Below, one piece after another: positions 29,095-43,222 of a stretch of 64,000 bases of DNA. The stretch lies in assembly GCA_024697645.1 (NCBI GenBank), contig JAILFH010000037.1, forward strand, positions 7,338-71,337. The letters are read 5' to 3'. The DNA is from Prevotella sp. (GTDB lineage: Bacteria; Bacteroidota; Bacteroidia; Bacteroidales; Bacteroidaceae). The notes under the pieces were generated by a model. The model did not search any database. It was not told where the DNA came from and saw only the letters and a program-made list of their open reading frames with translations. The number at the start of each line of letters is the position of its first letter. Position 1 is the stretch's first letter. Made by a program: the position numbers and the translations under genes.

Positions 29095-29167
29095 CACGAC
29101 CGTGGTAAACATTAAATAACCTTCCAAAATACCACAAAAAACACAATTTCATAATCTCATTTTTGTA

Positions 29168-29245
29168 TTTTTGGGACAAAATTTTGTAAATTTGGAACAA
29201 TTTACCAAACTTTCTTGCAAGTTTCAGGAAAATTGTGTAATTTTG
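29168..29245 (+). promoter_or_regulatory. Promoter of module 1 with upstream 14-bp quasi-palindrome
   Basis: TTTTTGGGACAAAA 29168-81; TTG 29215-17; TAATTTTG 29238-45 (20-nt spacer). Confidence 0.65.
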
Positions 29246-29350
29246 TACTAATAATATATATGATGAGCACGCATTGGAAAAATGCTACTCGAGATAAAAC
29301 TAGTTTCAGTTATTTACAAATATTTTTCAAATTTAAATAAAATAGAGCTT

Positions 29351-32300
29351 ATGAAAAACTATTTACTAAACAAACCCAAATGGCTTGTATGGGTTGCAGC
29401 ATTTATAATGTCTGCCCTAACACTCCCACTACAAGCACAAAACGTGACCATTAAGGCCACGAATGGTAGTACTATTGCTGCCGTGAAACAAGGTGGTACG
29501 ACAGACTCTTTCTTTGCAGCAGGTGGTTTTGCAACTTGGCAACATGAACAATTGGCTATGGTGCTGACGGTCTCTGACGGAACTGCCCTGACACCTAACG
29601 GACAATTGGACAACCCTGCCAACAACCTCTTTACAGATGGAAGTTACGTGCAGATTGCCAAAGGTCGCGCCGATGGTGCAAATGTTTGCTATGTGTCACT
29701 GAGTTTGCCCAGTGGTTATCGTTTCACAGGTTATGAGATTAGTTTTAACAAACCATCTGATGTGTCCAAGGGAAGTGACATCTCTTTCAACACAAGTTAT
29801 ACCGAATCAACCTTTGGTGAGACAAACAGCACATTTGACACATACGCTACTTCTGCCTCAATTTATACTGGAGGAACAGCACAGACCATCTCCCGTACTG
29901 AGATGACCGAAGGCGAAATGAGTAACATTCTCTACTTCAAGTTAGAGAATCCTTCTAACAGACGCGCCCTGATTAATTTATTAAGCGCAGAGTTCTTCTT
30001 TACAGCCGAGGAAAGTTACACTCCTGTTATGCCAACAACTTCTGTGACATCTGTTAGCGCGGTAGACATTCCTTTCTCAACCAGTAAGGTAGACTATGGA
30101 AGTGTTCAAAACCGCTCATATACAATCAATGGCAGAACATATAACCGAATTAGCTACAGCTCTGCCAACGTGACTGACCTCTCTGCCAACTTCGTATTAT
30201 ACGAAGCCGAATCTATTGAAGATGGTACAGACATTGATGAAGTTCCTGGTAAAGTCGTGAAATACGATGCTGGAACTATTTCATCTGCAGGAGGATTCTT
30301 CAAATTGGGCCGTGAGAGTCAGGAGCAGATTTATTATTTAGAAACTCCTACTTTTGTTACTTTGTCCGATGGTACTAAGAATCCAGTGGGCTATCGTATT
30401 ACTGGTGCAGAGTTTGAATATAGTAGTTCATCTACATCAGGTGAAAATTCTTTCTACATATCATGTACATATAACGGTACGGTATATTATTTGAATACGG
30501 AAGGCCGTTTCACTACTACCCCAGTAGTCTGGGAAATTGATAGCGAGGGATACATTTCCAGCTCTGGCAATTATATTTATTGGAATAATAACTATGTAGC
30601 AACACAGACTACAAAGCCCGGTTCTTCTGAAAGATTTACCATTGCAGATAATGGACGTATTTATCAAACAGAATACACTAGGTACTATATTCGTTTCTAT
30701 GCTCAAGGTGACACTTATTATGGTTTAATAACTAATGATAATTATGGTGAATATGCAATAGCTGAAGAGATTCCTGTAACAAACGTTGGTGATTATACAC
30801 TTAAAATTTATGATAAGACAGGTACCACCTCTCAGAATATCACTGTGAACAGTGAGAACCCAAGTGGCAAGGTAAGCCTTACGGGTCTGAACAACGACGC
30901 TGTGAAGTTTGGCGTACAGGGTATTGGTCTTGTTCGCGCCACACTCACTTTACAGGCTCTCGACCCCTACCTCGACCATATGTCAGTAGTATGTCAGGAT
31001 AAAGTACAGACGGAGATTCGTCTGAGTCAGACTTTTACAGCAAGTGACTTCAGTGTTAGTGGTGGTGAGTTCTACTTCTACCTCCCCACCGATTGTGCTG
31101 GACATTCAGTTGCTATTACCTTCGAAGATCTCCAAAGTAAGTATTTCGATGAAACTTATACGGGCGGCAGCAGCAATCATACTTCGCGCATCAATTTTGT
31201 GAAGTCGGATCACTATAATGCCTTTGGTGCCTCACAAAACAAACTATATAATGATGTAGACGAGGCAGCCAATGCTCAGTTGGAACGACTGAAGGTAGGT
31301 ACTGTGGGTACTGCAGCATTCAAGTTTAACAATGCCGATGAGGTGGGTACCTCGGGTGGTACGCTTACTGAATACCCCTTCTCACTGGAGAATTATGCCG
31401 CTGCTCCTAACAATGGTGAGTTTACCAACATGGGATTCACCGTGTCAGAAGAAGATCAGAGCCTGACTCGTTACGTCTTCACTACAGACGAAACACGCTA
31501 CAACATTGCTCCTACAACAGCAGTTCAGCATCGTGCGTATGCCTTCTATGAGATGATTGTTCACGTGCAGACACAGACTTATGAGCCGAAGGTTAAATTC
31601 ACAAAGATTTACGACCCAACCCTCTATGGTACTGGCCAGACCGATGCTTTCTATGGCGCTAAGGTGACGGCCTATGATGGCAACACGCCTCCAAGGGCTG
31701 GTTACTCATCAACTACAGAGATCTTCAAGCACATTTCTAATGCCATTAAGAATGGTGTTGATGACTTCGGTAACACCGATGTGCCCAGCGATTCAAAGTA
31801 TATCCTCTATCTTGACTTTAGCGAGATGGCTGGTATCTATCAGACCACAGATTCCGAGCATGGTTCTATGGAAGACTTCTCGGCCACCAATGCCAAGAAT
31901 TGCCTAATTTTCATCCCAGTTGGTGCTTCTGCTCCGAACAACAATGTTGCCTATAAGATGGAGTCTGGTGGTTTCCACGCCGCACACGACATCGTGCTGA
32001 CAGACAAGGAACCATTCTATTCTCCTTACGACATCACCGTAGATGCAGCAAACAAGATTACATATAGCCGTCTGATTTCCAAGGATAGTTATGGTAAGGT
32101 TCAGAATGCTTCACTGATTATGCCATTCGCAGTTTCAGTTGACGGCGGTACGCACACCAACATCGACGGTTCAACCTTCTCATTGCACTATATGCAAGAA
32201 ACGGCAGCCCTGACTCAGATTGAAGGTAAAACCTATGCCTACTTCCCTGCTTTAGTCGATGTTACTACAACTAAGGCCAATACTCCTTATCTCGTGCAAC

Positions 32301-32833
32301 TGACTAAGAACAGCAGCGAAGATGGCGTTTCATTCGTCGTTACCCAGCCTGGTACAACCATCAAGGCTACTTCTGGAATGGGCAGTGATTACACATTCAC
32401 TGGTGCTACTTCAACAGGAACTGCTACTGAGGGAGACGCAGAGGGAACATACAACTTCACGAGTAAGGGAACCTACGCAGGTGCTAAGATTCCAAAAGCC
32501 GACAATGTATTCTACTTCGCAAAGAACCAGTTCGTGAATTCCGGTAATTTGGCCGAAGGATACAACTATGCTAACATTGCACCGTTCCGCGCTTACTTCG
32601 CCACATCGTCTTCTGGTGCTAAACTTTCTGCCTTCGATATCATCTTCGGTGAAGGTCAGGGCGACGTTCCGACAGGAATTCAGGCTGTTGATGCATCACA
32701 GTTCATCGATGTCAACGCACCTGTCTACGACCTGCAGGGACGCATGGTAGCACCTGCTTATCGCGAATTGGCTAGTAAGAAGTTGCAGAGTGGACTTTAC
32801 GTAGTTAACGGAGTAAAAATCATGATAAAGTAA
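29351..32833 (+). CDS. Module 1 large secreted protein with T9SS-type C-terminal domain, function unknown
   Basis: Signal peptide ..LPLQA/QNVTI; PFRAYF; CTD TGIQAVD..VYDLQGRMV..SGLYVVNGVKIMIK; paralogous to 33724 and 38314. Confidence 0.85.
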   Translation: MKNYLLNKPKWLVWVAAFIMSALTLPLQAQNVTIKATNGSTIAAVKQGGTTDSFFAAGGFATWQHEQLAMVLTVSDGTALTPNGQLDNPANNLFTDGSYVQIAKGRADGANVCYVSLSLPSGYRFTGYEISFNKPSDVSKGSDISFNTSYTESTFGETNSTFDTYATSASIYTGGTAQTISRTEMTEGEMSNILYFKLENPSNRRALINLLSAEFFFTAEESYTPVMPTTSVTSVSAVDIPFSTSKVDYGSVQNRSYTINGRTYNRISYSSANVTDLSANFVLYEAESIEDGTDIDEVPGKVVKYDAGTISSAGGFFKLGRESQEQIYYLETPTFVTLSDGTKNPVGYRITGAEFEYSSSSTSGENSFYISCTYNGTVYYLNTEGRFTTTPVVWEIDSEGYISSSGNYIYWNNNYVATQTTKPGSSERFTIADNGRIYQTEYTRYYIRFYAQGDTYYGLITNDNYGEYAIAEEIPVTNVGDYTLKIYDKTGTTSQNITVNSENPSGKVSLTGLNNDAVKFGVQGIGLVRATLTLQALDPYLDHMSVVCQDKVQTEIRLSQTFTASDFSVSGGEFYFYLPTDCAGHSVAITFEDLQSKYFDETYTGGSSNHTSRINFVKSDHYNAFGASQNKLYNDVDEAANAQLERLKVGTVGTAAFKFNNADEVGTSGGTLTEYPFSLENYAAAPNNGEFTNMGFTVSEEDQSLTRYVFTTDETRYNIAPTTAVQHRAYAFYEMIVHVQTQTYEPKVKFTKIYDPTLYGTGQTDAFYGAKVTAYDGNTPPRAGYSSTTEIFKHISNAIKNGVDDFGNTDVPSDSKYILYLDFSEMAGIYQTTDSEHGSMEDFSATNAKNCLIFIPVGASAPNNNVAYKMESGGFHAAHDIVLTDKEPFYSPYDITVDAANKITYSRLISKDSYGKVQNASLIMPFAVSVDGGTHTNIDGSTFSLHYMQETAALTQIEGKTYAYFPALVDVTTTKANTPYLVQLTKNSSEDGVSFVVTQPGTTIKATSGMGSDYTFTGATSTGTATEGDAEGTYNFTSKGTYAGAKIPKADNVFYFAKNQFVNSGNLAEGYNYANIAPFRAYFATSSSGAKLSAFDIIFGEGQGDVPTGIQAVDASQFIDVNAPVYDLQGRMVAPAYRELASKKLQSGLYVVNGVKIMIK

Positions 32834-32846
32834 GGAGGAAAACGAT

Positions 32847-33035
32847 ATGAAAAAAGTGTATATTAGTCCCGCTATTGAAATCGTCGCCTCACGACTGAAT
32901 CAACAAGTAATGCAAGGTCACAGTTTTGACTGGGCCGACGCCAAGGGAGATCCCATGGGCGGAGGCGGCGGTGGCGGAATGGTCATCACCAACGGCCAGA
33001 TGGAAGGTTCAAGCCCCAACATCTGGGAAGATTAA
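32847..33035 (+). CDS. Module 1 Gly-rich peptide with MKKxYxxP leader (62 aa)
   Basis: GGAGG 8 nt upstream of ATG; conserved in three copies with an in-frame indel. Confidence 0.8.
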   Translation: MKKVYISPAIEIVASRLNQQVMQGHSFDWADAKGDPMGGGGGGGMVITNGQMEGSSPNIWED

Positions 33036-33058
33036 CAACTCCAAAACATTGAGTGTCT

Positions 33059-33340
33059 ATGCGCGACAAAGCATTTCTCATCCTATGCACACTGCTGCTG
33101 ATACTGCTGTTCTTCTATTCTTCATCGAATGACGACAGTATTGCATCACCAGACATGCCCAGTGCCAACAATACGTCGTGGTTCGACCGACTTCTCGGTA
33201 ACGATGACGAGACCGCCGGCTTCGGTGAAGCAGGAGGTGGCGGCGGAGGGTTCTTCTTCAGTTCTTTCTACGGAGGAGTGGAGTTTCGCTTCAAGGTGAA
33301 GGACTACCGTGCATGGAACGACGACGATTTGTCGGAATAG
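33059..33340 (+). CDS. Module 1 single-TM Gly-rich microprotein (93 aa)
   Basis: Three copies differ mostly at synonymous sites; ATG at 33059. Confidence 0.8.
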   Translation: MRDKAFLILCTLLLILLFFYSSSNDDSIASPDMPSANNTSWFDRLLGNDDETAGFGEAGGGGGGFFFSSFYGGVEFRFKVKDYRAWNDDDLSE

Positions 33341-33357
33341 ACAAACTATACAAATGC

Positions 33358-33397
33358 AAGGAGCGGTGGGCCATTAGGCTCGCCGCTCTTTCTGTTT
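33358..33397 (+). terminator. Module 1 intrinsic terminator
   Basis: gagcggtgggcc-atta-ggctcgccgctc then tttctgttt. Confidence 0.8.
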
Positions 33398-33525
33398 AAA
33401 AACTTCCCAAACTTCCATACAAAAAAAATGACAACATTTAGCAATTAACCTATTGAAAGAACTTTATATCAATCACATTGTACTTATTGTTATAATTTTG
33501 CAACAAATATAACAAAATTAAACTT

Positions 33526-33591
33526 TTTTGTCCCTAAAACGAATATTTTTAAAGAAAAACTTGGAGATTTGGGATAAATTAGTTATTTTTG
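33526..33591 (+). promoter_or_regulatory. Promoter of module 2 with upstream 14-bp quasi-palindrome
   Basis: TTTTGTCCCTAAAA 33526-39; TTG 33561-63; TATTTTTG 33584-91. Confidence 0.65.
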
Positions 33592-33723
33592 TGCCAAATT
33601 ATATGCTTTGCATACATTGACACATTCTAATTCGAGACAAGACTAATTCAAGTTATTTACTTATTAGTTCTTCAATCATAGTTATTTACAAACATAATTC
33701 CAAATTTAATTAAAATAGAGTTT

Positions 33724-36700
33724 ATGAAAAATTATTTACTAAACAAACCCAAATGGCTTGTATGGGTTGCAGCATTTTTGATGTCTGCCCTTACACTCCC
33801 ATTACAAGCCCAAAACGTGACGATCCGCCCGGACAATGGTAGCCTTATTACTGGTCAGGCTGGTGGTAACACCGGAGACTCAGGTATTGGAAGAGGAATG
33901 TCTTCCATGTGGCGTCATGAGCAATTGCCCTTGATGATGACCACATCTGACATTGCCAACCTCACATCTGCCGGAGAACTGGCAGACCCCTCATGTGCTA
34001 TCGATGTGTACAATGGAAATCTGATCATTGGTGCTGGTCAGACTCAGACTTTCATGGTTGTGTCCTTGCCCAAAGGTTACCGCATCACTGGTTACACGCT
34101 GGTATTGCAGCCAAATGTCTATGGTAACAATATCCAGTTACATACTGGTAAGGATTCTTGGAATATCGGAACAGATGATCAGATGAGTTTCTATGAGACT
34201 CCTGCTTGGAGTTCTGGTAATCCATATATTAGACCTAATGGCACTGGCAATGACCTCAATACACATTGTACTTTGTTGGATCTTGACGAATATGATTATT
34301 CATACTATGCTGTTGCCACCGCCTCTGATGGCAGCACTGTAATGCAAAACAACAATGCAACTAACAGAGCCAAGGAATTTGTCATTTCACGTACCAGCCA
34401 GACTGAGACTGATATGACCAACCAACTTCACTTCTTCTTCGCCAGAGCATCAAGTCAATATGCTGTCACCATCAAGTCGTTTGAAATTCAGTTCACGGCT
34501 GAGGGAACTTTCAATGCAGAATTGACTCCTTCTGCTTCCGGACCGGCTGTTAGTATGGTTCAGTCCCCATTCTCAACAAGTAAGATGGATGTAGGTGCCA
34601 TAACCCTACAAAACGGCCTCTATACTTATGACTATACTGGTGTACGTGACCTTATTGCCTACAACTGGATATACCAAGACGATGCTATTAATGCAGGTAA
34701 GCCAGCCGATGTAGCAGTTAATAAGAATATTTATCCTGTTGTGGTTGACGGGAAGGGAGTATTTGCCTATGGTAATGACACCTATTTCGTTGAACCGCCC
34801 ACCACGATTACAACTGCTTCTGGCTGGGAATCACCCATTGGTTTCAGAGTTGTTGGCGCCCAGTTCGACTATCAGTGGGGTACACAAACAGCAGGTGGAA
34901 CCGTAACAATCGCGAATGGATACCGGATATCGGTAACACGGGATGGTACCACGTATTATTTGAATGACAATTTGGATTTCGTTAATGTCAATCAGAATAA
35001 TGCATTCGTATGGCAGATGGACGATTTAGGCAATCTCTATACTGGTACTGATTATAAAAGATACCTTGCCTGCTTTGGTAGTGGTAATGAGCGAGTACTC
35101 TCTTTAGGTTCTGCTGCATCTGGTGCCGAGGCAACTTGGAATCTGAGGGTAGCCGACAATGGTGATGTTTATTATCTTAGCGATGGTGGCAATACCTATT
35201 ATCTAAACTATCACTACATTCAGGAAGGATCAGCCTATCACTTAAGAGGCTATGTTACGAATGGTGCTACTACAAATCTGGCAACTGCCACTTCAACAGG
35301 TGGAACACATTCTGTTGAAGTACCTTCATTTACTCCTGGCGCCTATACGCTGAAGATATATGGTACAGATAAGAATACCGTGGTTAAGACTGTTACAGTA
35401 AACAGTGCCGCCGATGCAGGAACCTATCAACTGCTTGGTATTAACAACGATGCCGTGAAGTTTGTAATTGAAGGTCTTGAGGGAAACACTCAGGCCTTGG
35501 TGAATGTTTCATTGCAGTTGGAGGCTTTGGATCCTTATATTAACAGTATGGATATTGTCTGCCAAAGTGAGAAGGATGCCCAAGGCAAGCAACTGGAACT
35601 CATCCAGACGTTCACAGCCAATGACTTCTCAGTGAGTGGCGGTAAGTTCATCTTCTATATTCCGACGGACTATAGCAATCATGATTTAACCTTCACCTTC
35701 CGCGACCTCTTCAGCCAATATGGTGATGTAACCTATGGAGGAACAGGCAATGCACGCTATAGTTTTGTAACATCGCCATACTTTGAAACGGTTGATGGTA
35801 ATGGTGATAATGGTCTGTACGATTCAGGCTATGATCCAAATCATGCTTGCACAGATAAGATCTACACGGGAGTGGCTGGTAACATCCGCTTCAAGTTCAA
35901 CAACGCGGAAGAACTTACAGGCAGCGGTACTGGTACGAAAACACTGCAGGAGTACCCATTCTCTGTGTCAACTTATCTCGGCTCTACTGACCCCGATGGC
36001 AGTAGCAAGACCGGAGCGTTTTCAGATATTGTTATGAATGCCTCTAAGGAGGATCAGAAGAGTGGTATATATTATGTGTTTACTGCTGATGAAACCCGTT
36101 ACAATATTGCTCCCACAACTGCACTGGAGCATCGTAGTTACGCATTCTATCGCATGGATATTGAATTGGTTGCAAGACAATATACACCAAGTTTAGAGTG
36201 GAAAAAAGTCTATGATGTGACTTGCTATGCTGACCAGGATGAATCCGGCAAGGATATCGAAGCCAACAAGTCGATGTGGGGATTAACCCTGAGAGCAAAG
36301 GATACAGATGGTACTTATCCGGAAAGCGGCGGTTACCTTTCTGTAAAGGAGATTATGGATGCCTTCAATGGAGTTGAGACTCAGGCTCATGATGGTCCTA
36401 CCATTGGACAAGAAGGTGCCCCAGAATCGGCAGACCAGATTCTCTATGTTGATGGTAGCCTGTTGTCTACAATAGTTGCTAGTTCAGGTTACGATTTGGT
36501 AAGTCTGAGAGACGCACTTGCAAAGAATGTGCTGATCTACTTGCCGGAGAACATGACCTCGACAGCCGACAACTTTGCCTATAAGACAGCAAGTGGTTCG
36601 TTCATGGCAGGTAAGAACATTGTACTGACCGACCGCAAGCCTTTCTATGCTCCCTATGATATTCAGGTGCAGGCTGCTCCTAACAACATCACCTATACCC

Positions 36701-37461
36701 GCGATATCACTTGGCAGACCAATGGTCAGGTTACCAATGCTTCTATCATCGTTCCGTTCGAGATTGCAGTCGATGCAAATGGCGTGCATAGTGACAGTGA
36801 TGGCAATAAGTTCTCCGTTCATCAGATTCAGACTTCTGGTAGTTGTTTGAGCAATAACCCACTTACAGAAGACGACTATATCCACGTGCTCCCGCTTGTA
36901 GGCATGACGAAGACTGTTCCTAATGTTCCTTATGTTGTGAAAGTTGAAAGCGTGGCATCTGCCACGGGATCTACTCCTTCATTCATAGTGAAACAGACAG
37001 GTGCTCTGCTGAAGGCCACCAGTGGTATGGACGCCAACTATGAGTTCGCTGGAACTGCTGGTACTGGTATTGATGACAAGTCTTCAGTAACCTTCACTCC
37101 CACGGGTTCATTCTCAGGAAAGTTGCTTGCCAAGGCCAGCAATAACGTCTACTATTTCGCACACAATATGTTCCTTGACATTCAGACTCTGAACAGGGCT
37201 AATCTGTACGTTTACCCATTCCGTGCTTACTTCAGAACTAGTGGCGGTTCTAGTGCTAAGAGTCTGAACATCTTCTACGGAGAGAATTTCGACACAACGG
37301 GCATTAATACCGTTGAGGAAGAACCTGTAATGGTAGACCCGAATGCACCGGTCTATGATATTTACGGACGTATGGTTGCGACCACTGTTCGCGAGATTGC
37401 CGGCAAGAATCTGCCACGAGGCATCTATGTAGTTAAGGGTATTAAGTTTAATGTTAAATAA
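33724..37461 (+). CDS. Module 2 large secreted protein with T9SS-type C-terminal domain, function unknown
   Basis: Signal peptide nearly identical to module 1; PFRAYF; CTD TGINTVE..VYDIYGRMV..RGIYVVKGIKFNVK. Confidence 0.85.
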   Translation: MKNYLLNKPKWLVWVAAFLMSALTLPLQAQNVTIRPDNGSLITGQAGGNTGDSGIGRGMSSMWRHEQLPLMMTTSDIANLTSAGELADPSCAIDVYNGNLIIGAGQTQTFMVVSLPKGYRITGYTLVLQPNVYGNNIQLHTGKDSWNIGTDDQMSFYETPAWSSGNPYIRPNGTGNDLNTHCTLLDLDEYDYSYYAVATASDGSTVMQNNNATNRAKEFVISRTSQTETDMTNQLHFFFARASSQYAVTIKSFEIQFTAEGTFNAELTPSASGPAVSMVQSPFSTSKMDVGAITLQNGLYTYDYTGVRDLIAYNWIYQDDAINAGKPADVAVNKNIYPVVVDGKGVFAYGNDTYFVEPPTTITTASGWESPIGFRVVGAQFDYQWGTQTAGGTVTIANGYRISVTRDGTTYYLNDNLDFVNVNQNNAFVWQMDDLGNLYTGTDYKRYLACFGSGNERVLSLGSAASGAEATWNLRVADNGDVYYLSDGGNTYYLNYHYIQEGSAYHLRGYVTNGATTNLATATSTGGTHSVEVPSFTPGAYTLKIYGTDKNTVVKTVTVNSAADAGTYQLLGINNDAVKFVIEGLEGNTQALVNVSLQLEALDPYINSMDIVCQSEKDAQGKQLELIQTFTANDFSVSGGKFIFYIPTDYSNHDLTFTFRDLFSQYGDVTYGGTGNARYSFVTSPYFETVDGNGDNGLYDSGYDPNHACTDKIYTGVAGNIRFKFNNAEELTGSGTGTKTLQEYPFSVSTYLGSTDPDGSSKTGAFSDIVMNASKEDQKSGIYYVFTADETRYNIAPTTALEHRSYAFYRMDIELVARQYTPSLEWKKVYDVTCYADQDESGKDIEANKSMWGLTLRAKDTDGTYPESGGYLSVKEIMDAFNGVETQAHDGPTIGQEGAPESADQILYVDGSLLSTIVASSGYDLVSLRDALAKNVLIYLPENMTSTADNFAYKTASGSFMAGKNIVLTDRKPFYAPYDIQVQAAPNNITYTRDITWQTNGQVTNASIIVPFEIAVDANGVHSDSDGNKFSVHQIQTSGSCLSNNPLTEDDYIHVLPLVGMTKTVPNVPYVVKVESVASATGSTPSFIVKQTGALLKATSGMDANYEFAGTAGTGIDDKSSVTFTPTGSFSGKLLAKASNNVYYFAHNMFLDIQTLNRANLYVYPFRAYFRTSGGSSAKSLNIFYGENFDTTGINTVEEEPVMVDPNAPVYDIYGRMVATTVREIAGKNLPRGIYVVKGIKFNVK

Positions 37462-37476
37462 GGGAGGGCCACTCAT

Positions 37477-37662
37477 ATGAAAGCAGTTTATCAGAAGCCG
37501 CTCACAGAAGTGGTAGAATATAAGAACGAGAAGTTTTTCATGATTCAGTCGTACGATCACGCTGACTCTAAGGGCTATCCCATGGGCGGAAGCGGTGGTG
37601 GCGGCATGGTCATCACCAACGGCCAGATGGAAGATTCCAGTCCCAACATCTGGGAAGATTAA
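37477..37662 (+). CDS. Module 2 Gly-rich peptide with MKAxYxxP leader (61 aa)
   Basis: GGAGG 9 nt upstream; C-terminal half nearly identical to copies 1 and 3. Confidence 0.8.
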   Translation: MKAVYQKPLTEVVEYKNEKFFMIQSYDHADSKGYPMGGSGGGGMVITNGQMEDSSPNIWED

Positions 37663-37685
37663 CAACTCTAAAACATTGAGTGTCT

Positions 37686-37967
37686 ATGCGCGACAAAGCA
37701 TTTCTCATCGTGTGCACACTGCTGCTGATACTGCTGTTTTTCTATTCTTCATCGAATGATGACAGCATCGCATCACCAGACATACCCAGTGCCAATAACA
37801 CGTCGTGGTTCGACCGACTTCTCGGCAACGATGACGAGACCGCCGGCTTCGGTGAAGCAGGAGGTGGTGGCGGAGGGTTCTTCTTCAGTTCTTTCTACGG
37901 AGGAGTGGAGTTTCGCTTCAAGGTGAAGGACTACCGTGCGTGGAACGACGACGATCTGTCGGAATAG
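37686..37967 (+). CDS. Module 2 single-TM Gly-rich microprotein (93 aa)
   Basis: 10 synonymous versus 2 replacement codon differences to copy 1 (hand count). Confidence 0.8.
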   Translation: MRDKAFLIVCTLLLILLFFYSSSNDDSIASPDIPSANNTSWFDRLLGNDDETAGFGEAGGGGGGFFFSSFYGGVEFRFKVKDYRAWNDDDLSE

Positions 37968-37984
37968 ACAAACTATACAACTGC

Positions 37985-38024
37985 AAGGAGCGGTGGGCCA
38001 TTGGGCTCGCCGCTCTTTCTATTT
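37985..38024 (+). terminator. Module 2 intrinsic terminator
   Basis: gagcggtgggcc-attg-ggctcgccgctc then tttctattt. Confidence 0.8.
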
Positions 38025-38148
38025 ATACATATCTTAACCACGCAAAAATGTTTACATACTATGAACCTAAAACTATTAGGAAACCTTAATATTTTTCATA
38101 CCATATCAACAATTACTTTCTAACAGCAAACATAACATATTAGAACAT

Positions 38149-38214
38149 TTTTAGGCACAAAACGAACATTTATCAATAAAAACTTGCATTTTTCAAATAA
38201 ATTTCTTACTTTTG
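38149..38214 (+). promoter_or_regulatory. Promoter of module 3 with upstream 14-bp quasi-palindrome
   Basis: TTTTAGGCACAAAA 38149-62; TTG 38184-86; TACTTTTG 38207-14. Confidence 0.65.
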
Positions 38215-38313
38215 CACCATATTTATATGATGCGATTATTTTAAGGTTCATTTAAGGCTCTTTTTTAGACAAGAATAAAATCAAAACATCTCTACAATTT
38301 TAAAACAGATTTT

Positions 38314-41300
38314 ATGAAAGCATCTTTACAAAACAAACCCAGTTGGTTTGTATGGGTTGCGGCATTTGTAATGTCCGCTTTGGTTCTACCTATACAAGCC
38401 CAAAATGTGACTATCAGTCCGAAAACGGGTAACCTCGTTGCTGCTGTGACAGAATCGCAGGAAACTGGTTTCGCGTCTGGTTATTCTTCTTTGTGGCGTC
38501 ATGAACAATTGGCGTTGACAATGGTAACTGCCGACAAGCCCGACCTAACAGAAAGTGGAGAAATAGCCGTACCTTCTGCCGACATCAGCACCTACAACGA
38601 CAATTTGATTCTTGTAGGCGGTATGGCTAGAAATATGTTCATCACTGTTACCCTTCCCAAAGGATATCGGTTCACAGGCTATAAACTCGTTCTCAGGGAC
38701 GACTTAAGAAGCAATCCCGATGTGACTGTGACTAAAAACAACACGGCTCACATGCTTGATGCTTCATCTGTTCTCCGATTCTATGAGACTGAAGCATGGG
38801 AAGAGGGTGTGAATATGGATCAGGGCGACCAAGTGCTTACTGATTACAATGCTGTGGCCACATCTGACACTGACGGTGACATCGCGATTGACGGAACAAC
38901 AGGAGAGACTTTCACCATTGAGCGCACAAGTCTGACGGAAGACGACATGAGCAACCAACTCTATTTCCGAATGACTCGTACAGCAGAATACTACGGTGTA
39001 ACTATCCAGTCATTCGAAATCTTCTTCACCGCAGAAGGAACCTTCACTGCCAATGTGCAGCCCACCTCTACAAACTCTACAGCAGTCAGCATGGTGAAGT
39101 CAGGATTCAATACCAGTAAGATTGATATTGGTGAACTTACTGCTCACACGAAAGATGGAGCAACATACTATAGTTTCGACTATGAGGAAGTAAAGGACCT
39201 CATAGCCTACAACTATCTCTATCAAGATGATGCTGTAGAGGATGGTGCACCTGCTGATGTAGCAACAACGAAGAACATCTACGAAATGCAGGTGAATGGC
39301 AACTATTATTATGGTTTGAAAAACGATACCTATTTCGTCGAGACTCCTGTTGAAATTACCAACTCGAGTAATAACGAGGTTCCCATCGGTTACCGCATCG
39401 TAGGCGCTTTCATCAATTATGCCTATGCTGACGGCACTACACCAGAAGAGTACACCATCAACGTCTATGACCGAACGGGCAAAACTGTCCAAAAGACAAT
39501 AACCGTGAATAGCAGTAATGCTTCTGGTAGTTACGATTTAGGACTAATGAACAACGATGCCGTTAAATTTGCCATCGATGGTGTCGACACTGGTGTCGCA
39601 TTGGTAACTATCGACCTGATGCTTCAGGCACTCGATCCCTACATTGACAAGATGGATATTGTGTGCAGTGATGGAAATGAATTGAGTCTTACAGAATCAT
39701 TTACTGCAGATGACTTCTCAGTGAGCGGTGGTGTATTTGAATTCTATGTACCTGAGAAGTATAAAGATGTTGACTTAACCTTCACCTTCTCAGATCTTTA
39801 TAGTAAGTACGGCGACGAGACATACTATGATGGAACTGGTCATGGTGCTGGCCGTTACAGTTATGTAACATCCGAATATTTCGTCCCTATCGATGGCGAT
39901 GGCGATAATGGGCTCTATGATAGTGCTTATAGTCCCGATGCCGACTATACAACGAAAGTCTACACTTCTGTTGCAGGTGACAAGGCATTTAAATTCAACA
40001 ATGCTGAAGACTTGAGCAATACGGGTAGCGGTACTGCAAGTGCACTGGAAGAATATCCATTCTCCGTTGCCACCTATACTGCTGCTGTTGCAGATGGCGG
40101 TACGGGCGGTAGTTTTGTAAAAGTCGTTCTGAATGCTTCTGGAAAAGATACCGACGAGATTAAGAGTTCAGGAACCTATTACGTGTTCACTGCCGATGAG
40201 ACCCGCTGGAACATTGCTCCGACAACTTCCTGGCAGCATCGTTACTACGCTTATTACACGATGGTTATCAACCTGAAGGCCAAGACCTTCGATCCTGTTC
40301 TAACATGGACGAAGATCTATGACAATACATTGTATAAGGACAATGGAACAGTAGCCACCAACAGCATGTGGGGTCTGACATTGGGAACAATCGATCATGA
40401 TACACAGGAATCCATGAAAGGTTACTTGATGACAGATGAAATCCAAACTGCCATTGCTGCTGAGATTGCTGACGAAAACATAGAAACACCCGATACTGCA
40501 ACTCAGATTCTTTACATTGATGCAAGCAACCTGTCTTCTGTTATCTCTACTTCAACAACTACGCTTGAGAACTTAAAAGATAGTCTTGCTACGAATGCCT
40601 TGTTCTATCTGCCCCAGAGCACGACATCAACACTCGACAACGTTGCTTATATGACTACGAGTGGAACATTCCGTGCAGGTAAGAATATTGTACTAACTGA
40701 CATGAATCCTTTCTATGCACTTTATGATATCCAAGTTGATGCAGCCAACTATGCATCCTACAAGCGCCAGATTACAAAGGATAGTTATGGTAAGGTTCAG
40801 AATGCATCGTTGATTATGCCGTTTATCGTTGCGGTTACCGACGGTACTCACACCAACATCGATGGTTCAACCTTCTCTTTGCACTATATGCAGGAATCGG
40901 CTGCACTGACTCAGATTGGTGGTACAACCTATGCTTACTTCCCCGAATTAGTCGATGTGACTACATCTACAGCCAACACTCCTTATCTCGTACAACTGAC
41001 GGAAAACAGTTCTGAAGATGGAATTTCATTTGTTGTAACGCAGAAAGGTACACTCATCAAGGCTACCACAACAATGGATGAAGCAGACTACACCTTCACT
41101 GGCGAGACCTCAACTGGAACTGCTACCATAGATGAAACTGAGGCTACATACACCTTCACGAGTAAGGGTACCTACGCTGGTGCACAGATTGCAAAGGAAG
41201 AGAATGTATTCTACTTCGCAAAGAACCAGTTCTACAATTCTGGAGACTTAGTCAGCAGTTACAGTTATGCTAACATTGCACCGTTCCGTGCTTACTTCAC

Positions 41301-41538
41301 TTCGGCATCGAGTAGCACCACTGCTAAACTCTCTGCCTTCGACATCATCTTTGGTGAAGGTCAGGGAGACGTGCCGACAGGCATTCAGGCCGTTGATGCA
41401 TCACAATTCATCGATGTAAACGCACCTGTCTATGATATGCAAGGCCGTATGGTTTCTCCCACTTATCGTGAGTTGGGTAGTAAAAATCTTCAAAAGGGCT
41501 TCTATGTAGTTAACGGAGTTAAATTCATTGTAAAGTAA
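38314..41538 (+). CDS. Module 3 large secreted protein with T9SS-type C-terminal domain, function unknown
   Basis: Signal peptide ..LPIQA/QNVTI; C-terminal ~250 aa nearly identical to module 1. Confidence 0.85.
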   Translation: MKASLQNKPSWFVWVAAFVMSALVLPIQAQNVTISPKTGNLVAAVTESQETGFASGYSSLWRHEQLALTMVTADKPDLTESGEIAVPSADISTYNDNLILVGGMARNMFITVTLPKGYRFTGYKLVLRDDLRSNPDVTVTKNNTAHMLDASSVLRFYETEAWEEGVNMDQGDQVLTDYNAVATSDTDGDIAIDGTTGETFTIERTSLTEDDMSNQLYFRMTRTAEYYGVTIQSFEIFFTAEGTFTANVQPTSTNSTAVSMVKSGFNTSKIDIGELTAHTKDGATYYSFDYEEVKDLIAYNYLYQDDAVEDGAPADVATTKNIYEMQVNGNYYYGLKNDTYFVETPVEITNSSNNEVPIGYRIVGAFINYAYADGTTPEEYTINVYDRTGKTVQKTITVNSSNASGSYDLGLMNNDAVKFAIDGVDTGVALVTIDLMLQALDPYIDKMDIVCSDGNELSLTESFTADDFSVSGGVFEFYVPEKYKDVDLTFTFSDLYSKYGDETYYDGTGHGAGRYSYVTSEYFVPIDGDGDNGLYDSAYSPDADYTTKVYTSVAGDKAFKFNNAEDLSNTGSGTASALEEYPFSVATYTAAVADGGTGGSFVKVVLNASGKDTDEIKSSGTYYVFTADETRWNIAPTTSWQHRYYAYYTMVINLKAKTFDPVLTWTKIYDNTLYKDNGTVATNSMWGLTLGTIDHDTQESMKGYLMTDEIQTAIAAEIADENIETPDTATQILYIDASNLSSVISTSTTTLENLKDSLATNALFYLPQSTTSTLDNVAYMTTSGTFRAGKNIVLTDMNPFYALYDIQVDAANYASYKRQITKDSYGKVQNASLIMPFIVAVTDGTHTNIDGSTFSLHYMQESAALTQIGGTTYAYFPELVDVTTSTANTPYLVQLTENSSEDGISFVVTQKGTLIKATTTMDEADYTFTGETSTGTATIDETEATYTFTSKGTYAGAQIAKEENVFYFAKNQFYNSGDLVSSYSYANIAPFRAYFTSASSSTTAKLSAFDIIFGEGQGDVPTGIQAVDASQFIDVNAPVYDMQGRMVSPTYRELGSKNLQKGFYVVNGVKFIVK

Positions 41539-41551
41539 GGAGGAAAACAAT

Positions 41552-41743
41552 ATGAAAAAAGTGTATATTAGCCCCGCTATTGAAATCGTCGCCACACAAC
41601 TGAATCAGCAAGTAATGCAAGACGGCCACAGTTTTGACTGGGCCGACGCCAAGGGTGATCCCATGGGCGGAGGCGGAGGTGGCGGCATGGTCATCACCAA
41701 CGGACAGATGGAAGGTTCAAGCCAAAACATCTGGGAAGATTAA
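41552..41743 (+). CDS. Module 3 Gly-rich peptide with MKKxYxxP leader (63 aa)
   Basis: GGAGG 8 nt upstream; one-codon insertion relative to copy 1. Confidence 0.8.
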   Translation: MKKVYISPAIEIVATQLNQQVMQDGHSFDWADAKGDPMGGGGGGGMVITNGQMEGSSQNIWED

Positions 41744-41766
41744 CAACTCCAAAACATTGAGTGTCT

Positions 41767-42048
41767 ATGCGCGACAAAGCTTTTCTCATCGTGTGCACAC
41801 TGTTGCTGATACTGCTGTTCTTCTATTCTTCATCGAATGACGACAGCATCACATCACCAGACATACCCAGTGCCAACAACACATCATGGTTCGACCGACT
41901 TCTCGGCAACGATGACGAGACCGCCGGCTTCGGGGATGCAGGAGGTGGTGGCGGAGGGTTTTTCTTCAGTTCTTTCTACGGAGGAGTGGAGTTTCGCTTC
42001 AAGGTGAAGGACTACCGTGCGTGGAACGACGACGATTTGTCGGAATAG
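41767..42048 (+). CDS. Module 3 single-TM Gly-rich microprotein (93 aa)
   Basis: 10 synonymous versus 2 replacement codon differences to copy 2 (hand count). Confidence 0.8.
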   Translation: MRDKAFLIVCTLLLILLFFYSSSNDDSITSPDIPSANNTSWFDRLLGNDDETAGFGDAGGGGGGFFFSSFYGGVEFRFKVKDYRAWNDDDLSE

Positions 42049-42065
42049 ACATACTATACAACTGC

Positions 42066-42105
42066 AAAGAGCGGCGACCCATTAGGTTCGCCGCTCTTTC
42101 TGTAT
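42066..42105 (+). terminator. Module 3 intrinsic terminator
   Basis: aaagagcggcgaccc-atta-ggttcgccgctcttt; two G-U pairs of copies 1/2 are Watson-Crick here. Confidence 0.8.
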
Positions 42106-42128: not shown

Positions 42129-43142
42129 CTATTTTCCTTCCGCTATTCGCTCAGCCTCCTTACGTGCAGGTTTGCCCGTTTCAGTCAGAGGTAAATGAAT
42201 AACCGAGATAAACTGTCGTGGCTGCTCATATTTAGGCAAAACTTGTTGGCAAATGGCACGCAGGGATTCGTCATTGGAACCTTCATAAAGCATCACCACC
42301 ACTTCACCAAATTTCTCATCTCTGCGTTTCGTAATTAGGAATGGTACTGAAATATGGTCAGCAAGTTTGCGTTCTACTTCCTCCGTCTGTATCTTCACTC
42401 CTCCAGTGCAAACAACATTGTCTCGACGCCCGAGAATGCGGAATTCCACAGAAGATGAACCCGAAGAATGAGTTTCCCTTATCTCTGCCAAATCATTTGT
42501 CACCAATCGCTCTGCACAAACAAGTGGAGCCTCTATCATAAGGCAACCTTCCTCACCAAGAGAAACGTTAACACCTGGCAATGGTGTATACCATTCAGAA
42601 CTTTCCGGTCCATTGAGTCTTCTCAAAGCAATATGGGAAAGCGTTTCGGTCATACCATAACTACTCCAAACTGCATACGGGAAATCATGCAAGGCCTCTG
42701 CCATACGTTTATCAATTGCTCCACCACCAATGAGAAGATGTCGCACCTGCCGCAATTCTTCTCGCTCTGCTGCCACCTGTAGTGAATTCCAAACCTGTAA
42801 AGGGACCATAGCGGCGAAGTCAATAATCTTCCCTTCCCCATTGGAACAGAATGGAATAGCCTTCAAAGGATGACCACTTGGTTCCACGTTGATTAACTTG
42901 AGTCCACGATCCAAAGAACGCACGACCATCATCTTACCTGCTATATAGTCAAGAGGCATGCAAAGCAATGCTGTATCACCATTTTTCAACCCAAGAAAAT
43001 CGCATGTCATACGAGCCGATGCTAACATACGCACCTTCTCCACCCACAATGGTTTAGGTTGTCCCGTTGAACCACTGGTATGAACAAGCAAACGCTCATT
43101 GCCGTCGTTCCATTCTGTTAGAAATTCTTCAAGTGTCATCAT
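42129..43142 (-). CDS. menE: O-succinylbenzoate-CoA ligase (short Bacteroidetes form)
   Basis: HTSGSTGQPK, LLIGGG, YGMTET.SH, TNDL, LGRRDNVVCTGGVK; start moved to ATG 43142. Confidence 0.88.
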   Translation of the reverse strand: MMTLEEFLTEWNDGNERLLVHTSGSTGQPKPLWVEKVRMLASARMTCDFLGLKNGDTALLCMPLDYIAGKMMVVRSLDRGLKLINVEPSGHPLKAIPFCSNGEGKIIDFAAMVPLQVWNSLQVAAEREELRQVRHLLIGGGAIDKRMAEALHDFPYAVWSSYGMTETLSHIALRRLNGPESSEWYTPLPGVNVSLGEEGCLMIEAPLVCAERLVTNDLAEIRETHSSGSSSVEFRILGRRDNVVCTGGVKIQTEEVERKLADHISVPFLITKRRDEKFGEVVVMLYEGSNDESLRAICQQVLPKYEQPRQFISVIHLPLTETGKPARKEAERIAEGK

Positions 43143-43150
43143 TCCATCTG

Positions 43151-43198
43151 CAAAAGTACAAAAAAACTTTGAACCTTGAACATTTTTTTGTACCTTTG
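43151..43198. promoter_or_regulatory. Back-to-back -7 boxes (menE / GH2) forming an 18-bp inverted repeat around heptamers
   Basis: TACTTTTG on minus at 43151-58, TACCTTTG on plus at 43191-98; actttga accttga between them. Confidence 0.7.
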
Positions 43199-43222
43199 CA
43201 CCAATAACCATTCAACAACAAC

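Follow-up and report, generated by a model that had tools for sequence, protein, structure and literature searches.

What do two very small genes do behind each of three large genes for secreted proteins, and why does a Prevotella genome carry this arrangement in triplicate? The question is raised by an array in a 64,000-nt stretch of Prevotella sp. DNA (GCA_024697645.1, contig JAILFH010000037.1, positions 7,338 to 71,337 of the forward strand), called the window below, which is contig C41 of the source assembly (3.5 Mb, 92% complete). The listing of open reading frames (ORFs) and their translation showed three tandem units on the + strand with an identical layout, namely a large gene, a peptide gene and a microprotein gene. 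An earlier note, made from the letters of the window, had described this as a three-gene module in which a type IX secretion system (T9SS) cargo protein has two dedicated small partners. Our survey showed that the conserved unit is a pair, cargo gene plus peptide gene, which is common across the Prevotella group and not tied to this cargo family, and that the window holds a rare three-gene form of it, in triplicate. As to function, we give about an even chance to the reading that the peptide is the precursor of a ribosomally synthesised and post-translationally modified peptide (RiPP), resembling the linear polyphosphorylated peptides (LPPs) of Bacillota and matured in trans by an orphan operon for a RiPP recognition element (RRE), a kinase and a peptidase.

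The neighbourhood survey covered 74 related loci from public Prevotellaceae genomes with readable downstream DNA; the relatives are rumen and gut Prevotellaceae, and the surveyed loci include those of Segatella buccae ATCC 33574, Hoylesella loescheii, Prevotella veroralis and Hallella colorans. In 72 of the 74 loci, an ORF of 52-79 aa with the pattern MKKxYxxP...W[DE][DE] starts 3-148 nt (mostly 13-21 nt) after the cargo stop codon, and one further locus has a peptide ORF behind an alternative ATG. The microprotein gene was found in just 2 of the 74 loci and in none of 300 other family genomes. The co-occurrence with large-protein homologues that the earlier note had proposed to look for was thus found for the peptide (72-73 of 74 loci), and for the microprotein at 2 of the 74 loci only; its three-gene module describes the window correctly, the core being two genes. 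Likewise, of its two dedicated partners the peptide is widely coupled to cargo, and the microprotein is a rare addition. We found no characterised operon of this architecture in the literature searched, and the earlier note had known of none.

A word-indexed search with the peptide returned just 4 clusters and was too insensitive, and a profile made from the downstream ORFs of the related loci was used instead. This profile found 13 peptides in the source genome. The 12 with readable upstream DNA all lie behind a gene for cargo with a T9SS C-terminal domain (CTD), one of them overlapping the cargo stop codon by 4 nt and the others starting 13-59 nt after it, and the 13th sits at the start of a contig. 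The peptide-linked cargo are of six unrelated sizes, from 407 to 1435 aa. Three more paralogues of the large protein lie on contig C120 of the same genome, each followed after 13-14 nt by a peptide of 55-57 aa with an acidic core, and no third gene is present there. The profile matched 169 of 301 sampled family genomes and 23 of 35 genera, with up to 13 copies per genome, and outside the family it matched 3 of about 300 genomes at E<=0.001, two of these matches being behind CTD cargo. The peptide ORFs are labelled hypothetical in public records. One Prevotella melaninogenica peptide cluster bears the label 'iron utilization protein', which had no support in the literature searched and was ignored.

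Within the window, the gap between the large gene and the peptide gene is 13, 15 and 13 nt in units 1, 2 and 3, and that between the peptide gene and the microprotein gene is 23 nt in each unit, so that the exact coordinates bear out the order and spacing given before. A Bacteroidetes-type TAnnTTTG -7 box lies 100-160 nt 5' of the ATG in each unit (at 29187-29194 in unit 1), and a conserved G+C-rich hairpin with a T run closes each of the three units. The earlier assignment of a separate promoter and terminator to every unit agrees with these elements, the promoter match of units 2 and 3 being one to the consensus. We propose that each copy of the array is one operon.

We compared the copies with each other. 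Amino-acid identity was 41-51% between the large proteins, 62-95% between the peptides and 96-98% between the microproteins, and the small genes are, as the earlier note stated, far more conserved than the large gene (62-98% versus 41-51%). The ratio of nonsynonymous to synonymous substitution (dN/dS, by Nei-Gojobori) was 0.05-0.08 for the microprotein and 0.10-0.24 for the peptide; both are therefore real genes under purifying selection. The suggestion that the small ORFs are frames left open by chance in repeated DNA can draw on the lack of a database family and on the hypothetical label in most records, but it is hardly credible, being already contradicted by these ratios (0.05-0.24), by conservation of the proteins across genera despite diverged DNA, and by gene callers, which predict the small ORFs in many genomes. 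Pfam, NCBIfam, PADLOC and PHROGs gave nothing for any of the three proteins but a sub-threshold Por_Secre_tail match. Synonymous divergence (dS) was about 0.2 for the microprotein gene, as it was for the final 250 codons of large copies 1 and 3, and it was saturated across the remainder of the large genes. The bodies of the large genes are, as their divergence suggests, old paralogues, and the low dS at the 3' ends compared with the saturated bodies indicates that these ends have been homogenised by gene conversion or were recently duplicated.

The large proteins have the marks of T9SS cargo. All three start with the pattern MK..KPxW-hydrophobic-LP(L/I)QAQN (highest 19-residue Kyte-Doolittle (KD) value 1.89) and end with DVPTGIQAV...PVYDLQGRMV...GLYVVNGVKIMIK, in which the PT/GI cleavage motif is present, as are motifs B, D and E. 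The 'short CTD' of Prevotella intermedia is made up of a PT/GI cleavage motif, motif B YDxxGR, motif D GxYVV and a basic end with a terminal K as motif E (PMC11969387). The window cargo share with it PT/GI, YDxxGR, GxYVV, the basic end and a signal peptide ending in Q, and that paper mentions neither a trailing peptide gene nor a shared pre-CTD region. The Pfam/TIGR Por_Secre_tail models scored 17-21 bits against a threshold of 27, which is the expected outcome because the CTD is short. The source genome encodes SprA/Sov (SprA_N, PF14349, E 2e-233, in a 2666-aa ORF on contig C47) and about 83 CTD-bearing cargo ORFs. The signal peptide and Prevotella-type CTD named in the earlier note are thus upheld by the hydrophobic N-terminus, the short-CTD motifs and the presence of SprA.

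AlphaFold2 modelled large protein 3 (47-sequence alignment) as an all-beta multidomain chain with a mean predicted local distance difference test (pLDDT) score of 79. A Foldseek search of the whole model against the PDB matched tandem discoidin, F-lectin, CBM22, CBM51 and ephrin-receptor jelly rolls, all generic and with low TM-scores because the query has many domains, and it matched no enzyme. The libraries also showed no enzyme, in keeping with the remark that no catalytic motif could be recognised. From motifs and model, the large protein is predicted to be a secreted or surface binding protein of the lectin/adhesin type without a catalytic domain, and the secreted adhesin suggested by the earlier note fits a T9SS cargo built of lectin/CBM-like beta-sandwiches. 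Its homologues form at least 969 clusters, all unnamed, a few of them with a PF00404 dockerin replacing the CTD. Large proteins 1 and 2 carry an aromatic, Tyr-rich insert of about 110-140 residues at the same site (window positions ~30400-30900 and ~34900-35400), which copy 3 lacks.

About 15% of the cargo genes in the source genome have a peptide (12-13 of ~83). These peptide-linked cargo can be aligned over 150-190 residues before the CTD, where ..PF.., NTPY, KGTY, FRAYF and AK.l.f motifs recur. A simple form of this motif, picked post hoc, was present in 12 of 12 peptide-linked cargo and in 6 of 71 others, and the signature was also seen upstream of peptides in other families. In cross-validation, hidden Markov models (HMMs) of the large family and of the other peptide-linked cargo did not find each other, and hhalign of the two subsets gave E 0.007 over 42 columns. 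A shared pre-CTD region is therefore not statistically established; just a short motif correlates with the peptide. On contig C45 (65462-75799), a 3269-aa cargo with the pre-CTD signature FRAFL...AKSLSIEL is followed by a 152-aa protein with its own CTD, and no peptide is present.

The third gene is rare, and it is coupled to one type of peptide. A word-indexed search with the microprotein gave 10 clusters, and a HMMER profile search of 1.84 billion representatives gave 16 matches, about 11 of them small proteins. Their conserved layout consists of an N-terminal hydrophobic segment (highest 19-residue KD 2.31 in microprotein 1), SW(F/I)D.L.G.DD, a Gly run and (F/Y).SS.F.G.EFRFKVKDYRA.(N/S)DDDL.E; the conserved acidic part would lie outside the cytoplasm because of the positive-inside rule. 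The gene context of the microprotein could be read at 18 positions: three in the window, one each at L031 and L056, eight on metagenome contigs and five on contigs with more distant members. In 18 of 18 it comes after genes for a cargo protein and for a YxxP peptide whose core is not acidic. The 13 closest positions have a Gly-rich peptide core, GGxGGGG(M/Q)VI(T/E)NG...N(L/I)W(D/E)D, and the five distant ones a related non-acidic core; acidic-core peptides are never accompanied by a third gene. The microprotein thus co-varies with the peptide core, which argues that it works with the core.

We next consider the peptide itself. The comparison used 85 peptide sequences picked by the Y/FxxP pattern or by the profile, so that Y/FxxP in 85/85 is true by construction of the set. 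The N-terminus is conserved over 25-30 residues and the C-terminus is variable. A Ser follows the Tyr by 17-25 residues in 81 of the 85 (at +20 in 50), a small-x-small-K hinge (A[DE][ASG]K type: ADAK, ADSK etc.) occurs in 59, and 76 have a Trp among their final seven residues. The core, which begins behind the hinge, is variable and has a median net charge of -6 over the 85 peptides, and the window peptides carry a rare Gly-rich core (GGGGGGGMVITNGQMEG..NIWED). The peptide has no hydrophobic segment (highest 19-residue KD 0.65 in peptide 1) and is therefore made in the cytoplasm; it is not a signal peptide, one of the roles that the earlier note had offered for a small partner. Nothing supports its other examples 'chaperone' and 'anchor'; the leader-plus-core design, together with an orphan operon for an RRE, a peptidase and a kinase, points to a RiPP-like precursor.

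This operon lies on contig C67 next to rpoD (C67:74792-77212, equal to locus L106:1793-4213, minus strand) and consists of genes for a 197-aa exported protein, a kinase, a peptidase and the only PqqD protein of the source genome. The PqqD protein (90 aa) matched PF05402 with E 8e-12, and the PqqD profile matches comprise the lasso B1 RREs TfuB1 (3.5e-6) and TbiB1 as well as 9x90_B (2e-4), with two 2026 PqqD entries included. The putative kinase is a P-loop protein of 307 aa with SGTGKST that weakly matched the HprK-related TIGR04352/HprK_rel_A (E 4e-4; 19.5 bits, cut-off 200) and ScmC (9e-5). The putative peptidase (~150 aa) has invariant GxS24MxPF, H62R and GD77GN. All 8 of the other family genomes examined keep the order rpoD, exported protein, kinase, peptidase, RRE; among them is that of S. 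buccae ATCC 33574, which carries both the module of large protein and peptide and the operon. No YxxP precursor ORF was found near the kinase/peptidase/RRE trio in the source genome or in the 8 others. Neither a lasso B2 cysteine protease nor a macrolactam cyclase is in the operon, no genome-wide search for them having been made. The 197-aa exported protein, without an assigned family, accompanies the trio in most Prevotella-type genomes examined and is not found with it in g2-type genomes.

A fuller cluster was found in genome G158, from another family of Bacteroidales. There, L141:1477-5965 (C105:129476-133964, minus strand) encodes orthologues of the kinase, the peptidase and the RRE together with an NTP_transf_5 protein (PF14907, 4e-33) and an exporter of the ATP-binding cassette (ABC) type. 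Directly upstream on the same strand lies a 40-aa ORF, MKKLYTSPEIEVVEVIEYGFAASEPLGRSKVSQSFEEEEF (MKKLYTSPEIEVVEV...S...EEEEF), which matches the window leaders (MKKVYISPAIEIVAS) in type over its first 15 residues, and the kinase orthologue has a weak PEPCK_ATP P-loop match. The LPP clusters of Bacillota have this core gene set (PMC13381572); from its gene content, G158 has what appears to be a complete LPP-like gene set in Bacteroidales. The distributions of peptide and kinase were also compared. In the family sample, 163 genomes had both, 6 the peptide only, 79 the kinase only and 53 neither, in counts that ignore phylogeny. Among the six peptide-only genomes, one has a contig that ends inside the cluster, one gave a weak RRE match and three are incomplete assemblies (at most 87% complete, two of them 69-70%), and three genomes of 94-99% completeness in peptide-rich genera lack kinase, RRE and peptides alike. 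Outside the family, all 3 peptide-positive genomes are among the ~15 of 300 with a close kinase orthologue, and weak peptide matches, some of them behind CTD cargo, occurred in 5 of 11 kinase-positive versus 1 of 11 kinase-negative genomes.

The precursors of the LPPs of Bacillota measure 35-200 aa, start with a leader YxxPxVLxHQxIxFETxxS and vary at the C-terminus; LPPs were reported as restricted to Bacillota, and their biological role as not known (Nat Commun 2026, PMC13381572). The peptides described here resemble them in the YxxP leader, in a Ser some 18-20 residues further on (+18 in LPPs, mostly +20 here) and in the variable C-termini; the full cluster of LPPs contains an NTP transferase and an ABC (MsbA-like) exporter, as seen here in G158, and the Ser-His spacing is 39 in LppS and 38 in the source-genome peptidase. 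The differences are that LPP precursor genes lie within the cluster, whereas here they are scattered, with as many as 13 in one genome and a T9SS cargo gene in front of each; that the maturation operon is here cut to three genes next to rpoD plus the 197-aa exported protein; that the leader here is MKKxYxxPxxExV...LMxGS; and that phosphorylation and cleavage, which belong to the LPPs, are here predicted. Because there is no precursor, NTP transferase or exporter by the source-genome trio, we do not file the window peptides as LPP members, only as possibly working like them. Lasso precursors share the leader motif [Y/W]xxPx[L/V/I/F/A], and the RRE profile matches TfuB1 and TbiB1; here, however, the cores are of 25-40 residues, acidic, and without the usual Thr at -2 and Gly/Ala at +1.

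If the peptide is an LPP-like precursor, the following steps would be expected. The YxxP motif would be bound by the single discrete lasso-type RRE of the genome, the PqqD protein, which would hand the peptide to the adjacent P-loop (HprK-related) kinase, where the conserved Ser about 20 residues after the Tyr would be phosphorylated. The RRE would also hand the peptide to the adjacent S26-like Ser/His/Asp peptidase, which would remove the leader, possibly at the hinge ADA|K. The released core, strongly acidic and with a Trp near its end, may be exported and act together with the co-expressed cargo. For the Gly-rich core of the window, the 93-aa exported or membrane-anchored microprotein might serve outside the cytoplasm as receptor or carrier, or as a partner resembling an immunity protein.

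Several points weigh against the LPP-like precursor. The HprK relationship of the kinase is far below the family cut-offs, and its PDB profile matches are ABC-ATPase P-loops only; the peptidase matches are weak as well (TIGR02227 E 4e-4, Pfam S26/S24 E 0.03, PDB signal peptidase I E 0.2), all below the cut-offs. Neither an NTP transferase nor an exporter is found beside the trio in the source genome or the 8 others, which leaves export of the product unexplained. The P+2 residue is L/V/I/F/A in just 49 of 85 leaders and Thr in 27. The G158 precursor matched the peptide profile weakly (E 0.04), with the resemblance mainly in its first 15 residues. The 79 kinase-positive genomes without a peptide match make the trio commoner than the peptide, the co-occurrence statistics for trio and peptide take no account of phylogeny, and in G455 and G518, which are fairly complete, peptides are present and kinase and RRE were undetected. 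We know of no precedent for RiPP precursors scattered behind unrelated structural genes, and maturation as a RiPP alone gives no reason for the place of the peptides behind T9SS cargo.

A rival explanation is a dedicated cargo accessory. In this explanation, an unmodified acidic peptide binds its own cargo, for example just before the CTD, as a chaperone, export-competence factor, inhibitor or surface partner. Peptide and cargo gene are near-obligate neighbours in a shared transcription unit, the peptide-linked cargo subset shares the pre-CTD signature (..PF..NTPY..KGTY..FRAYF..AK.l.f..), which recurs upstream of peptides in other families, and the peptides are small and acidic like secretion chaperones; small acidic chaperones are encoded beside effectors of the type III and type IV secretion systems. 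Type-B CTD cargo also carry a cognate PorP/SprF-family gene, as in SprB-SprF of Flavobacterium johnsoniae, where a dedicated partner gene likewise follows the cargo gene; the SprF-family partner, however, forms a beta-barrel in the outer membrane, is about 300 aa long and carries a signal peptide, whereas here it is a soluble peptide of 55-79 aa and the CTD is of type A. Against an accessory, a signal peptide is absent from the peptide, whereas its cargo is carried over the inner membrane by Sec and folds on the periplasmic side. We also modelled a fusion of the last 380 residues of cargo 2 and peptide 2 as an in-frame read-through with TAA as Gly (AlphaFold2, 18-sequence alignment, 17 homologous loci); the cargo domains were confident and the peptide was disordered and undocked at pLDDT 30-40, a weak test given the shallow alignment and short tether. 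The pre-CTD domain failed in the cross-validated HMM, its hhalign score is the marginal one given above and its motif was post hoc, and the leader-like conservation, as well as the like-leadered peptide in the kinase/peptidase/RRE/exporter cluster of G158, would be left unaccounted for. Taken together, we regard an accessory of this kind as unlikely.

The three-gene form taken by itself has the usual layout of a class II bacteriocin or microcin, in which a leader and Gly-rich core are followed by a small single-transmembrane protein, and the Gly-rich core is strictly coupled to the microprotein (13/13 places, plus the 5 more distant). The peptide would then be an exported antimicrobial and the microprotein its immunity protein. 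We consider this very improbable: there is no GG motif at the leader end, no transporter or C39-peptidase ABC exporter was found in the window around the array (no genome-wide exporter search was made), no antimicrobial-peptide family was matched in the library scans, and the operon is shared with a surface protein of ~1100 aa. Moreover, most family members, which have acidic cores, lack such a partner, and the microprotein is conserved in its exported acidic C-terminus (EFRFKVKDYRA.DDDL), not in its transmembrane segment. Another cytoplasmic role, in which the peptide regulates how the cargo operon is expressed or translated or how stable its mRNA is, or signals cargo synthesis, would suit the absence of an export signal and the fixed position at the 3' end of the operon, and an acidic, Trp-bearing disordered tail could mimic a binding partner. 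DNA- or RNA-binding features are absent, however, and variable cores with a conserved YxxP, Ser and hinge fit recognition and processing better, which makes such a role distinctly improbable.

A wider proposal would join the LPP-like precursor with its position. Prevotellaceae and some other Bacteroidales may have adapted a RiPP pathway of the LPP-like kind as an additional layer of the T9SS, with dozens of precursors on surface-protein operons, one housekeeping-like operon by rpoD that matures them, and each phosphorylated acidic product serving its own cargo, for example by binding the pre-CTD region, by anchoring the cargo at the surface or releasing it, or by being the acceptor in CTD cleavage and attachment; the Gly-rich core with the exported microprotein would be a specialised membrane-linked version. 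In this full form we hold the proposal to be rather unlikely. Prevotella and Segatella dominate gut, rumen and oral communities, and T9SS cargo are their main surface and secreted proteome; a peptide family with up to 13 members per genome behind a defined cargo subset, missing from Pfam, NCBIfam and the literature searched, is a gap in the T9SS parts list. If the operon does mature the peptides, LPP-type RiPP chemistry would extend from Bacillota to Bacteroidota, a single central operon would be seen to mature precursors encoded at scattered sites, and a testable connection with surface proteins would be opened for the role of LPP-like products. The whole set is carried by cultured strains such as Segatella buccae ATCC 33574, so that this is directly testable.

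The coordinates of the array features are collected in Table 1.

Table 1. Features of the three-unit array, in window coordinates.
Feature	Position	Strand	Basis or remark
Promoter-like element, unit 1 (TTTG ... TAAATTTG)	29162..29194	+	Exact match to TTTG-N17-23-TAnnTTTG
Large gene 1, T9SS cargo, 1160 aa from the conserved MKNYLLNKPKW start	29351..32833	+	Signal peptide, short CTD
Peptide gene 1, 62 aa	32847..33035	+	YxxP leader, ADAK hinge, Gly-rich core, NIWED end
Microprotein gene 1, 93 aa	33059..33340	+	N-terminal transmembrane/signal segment, Gly run, invariant EFRFKVKDYRAWNDDDLSE end
Terminator hairpin, unit 1	33358..33397	+	Read from the sequence; sequence family as in the unit 2 hairpin
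-7 box TATTTTTG, unit 2	33584..33591	+	Consensus match only
Large gene 2, T9SS cargo, 1245 aa	33724..37461	+	ORF, alignment with paralogues
Peptide gene 2, 61 aa, leader subtype differs (MKAVYQKPLTEVVEY), core as in units 1 and 3	37477..37662	+	In frame with large gene 2
Microprotein gene 2, 93 aa	37686..37967	+	ORF, dN/dS
Terminator hairpin, unit 2, 15 pairs, 9 G-C	37985..38018	+	Found by scan
-7 box TACTTTTG, unit 3	38207..38214	+	Consensus match only
Large gene 3, T9SS cargo, 1074 aa, copy modelled by AlphaFold2	38314..41538	+	All-beta model, Foldseek matches
Peptide gene 3, 63 aa	41552..41743	+	ORF, translation
Microprotein gene 3, 93 aa	41767..42048	+	ORF, translation
Terminator hairpin, unit 3	42066..42104	+	Read from the sequence

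Among the three units, the exact TTTG -33 element was found in unit 1 only. The pattern TTTG-N17-23-TAnnTTTG matched 5 times in the window against 2.0 expected, which is weak evidence alone, and a sigma-70-type promoter scan of the window gave 26 matches against 27.7 expected, a scan that is not informative for Bacteroidetes. The ORF of large gene 1 is open for 23 codons 5' of the start shared by the paralogues (29282-29350, extension MLLEIKLVSVIYKYFSNLNKIEL). The start at 29351 is preferred over 29282 because the paralogues align from 29351, and the extension is probably not translated.

The array is flanked by ordinary chromosomal genes, with 3-dehydroquinate synthase and GH43 upstream and an AMP-binding enzyme, GH2 and GH5 downstream. 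The AMP-binding gene (window 42129-43211, minus strand) has the same position in a metagenome contig (locus L107:680-1729), which indicates synteny at this end of the array in a related species; the microprotein of that contig is ~80% identical to that of the window. Elsewhere in the source genome, a CTD cargo ORF at C107:35034-38306, weakly similar to the last 300 residues of the large family, extends nine codons beyond the usual ...GKKVMIK end (PNMPWEKRR), as with a lost stop codon. Between the genes of the array at C120:7240-23774 (locus L010) lie those for a BspA-like leucine-rich-repeat protein and for an 809-aa C10-peptidase-like protein, each of which ends in tandem dockerin-like repeats (DVNGDG.ITIADVTALVNIIL) in place of a CTD.

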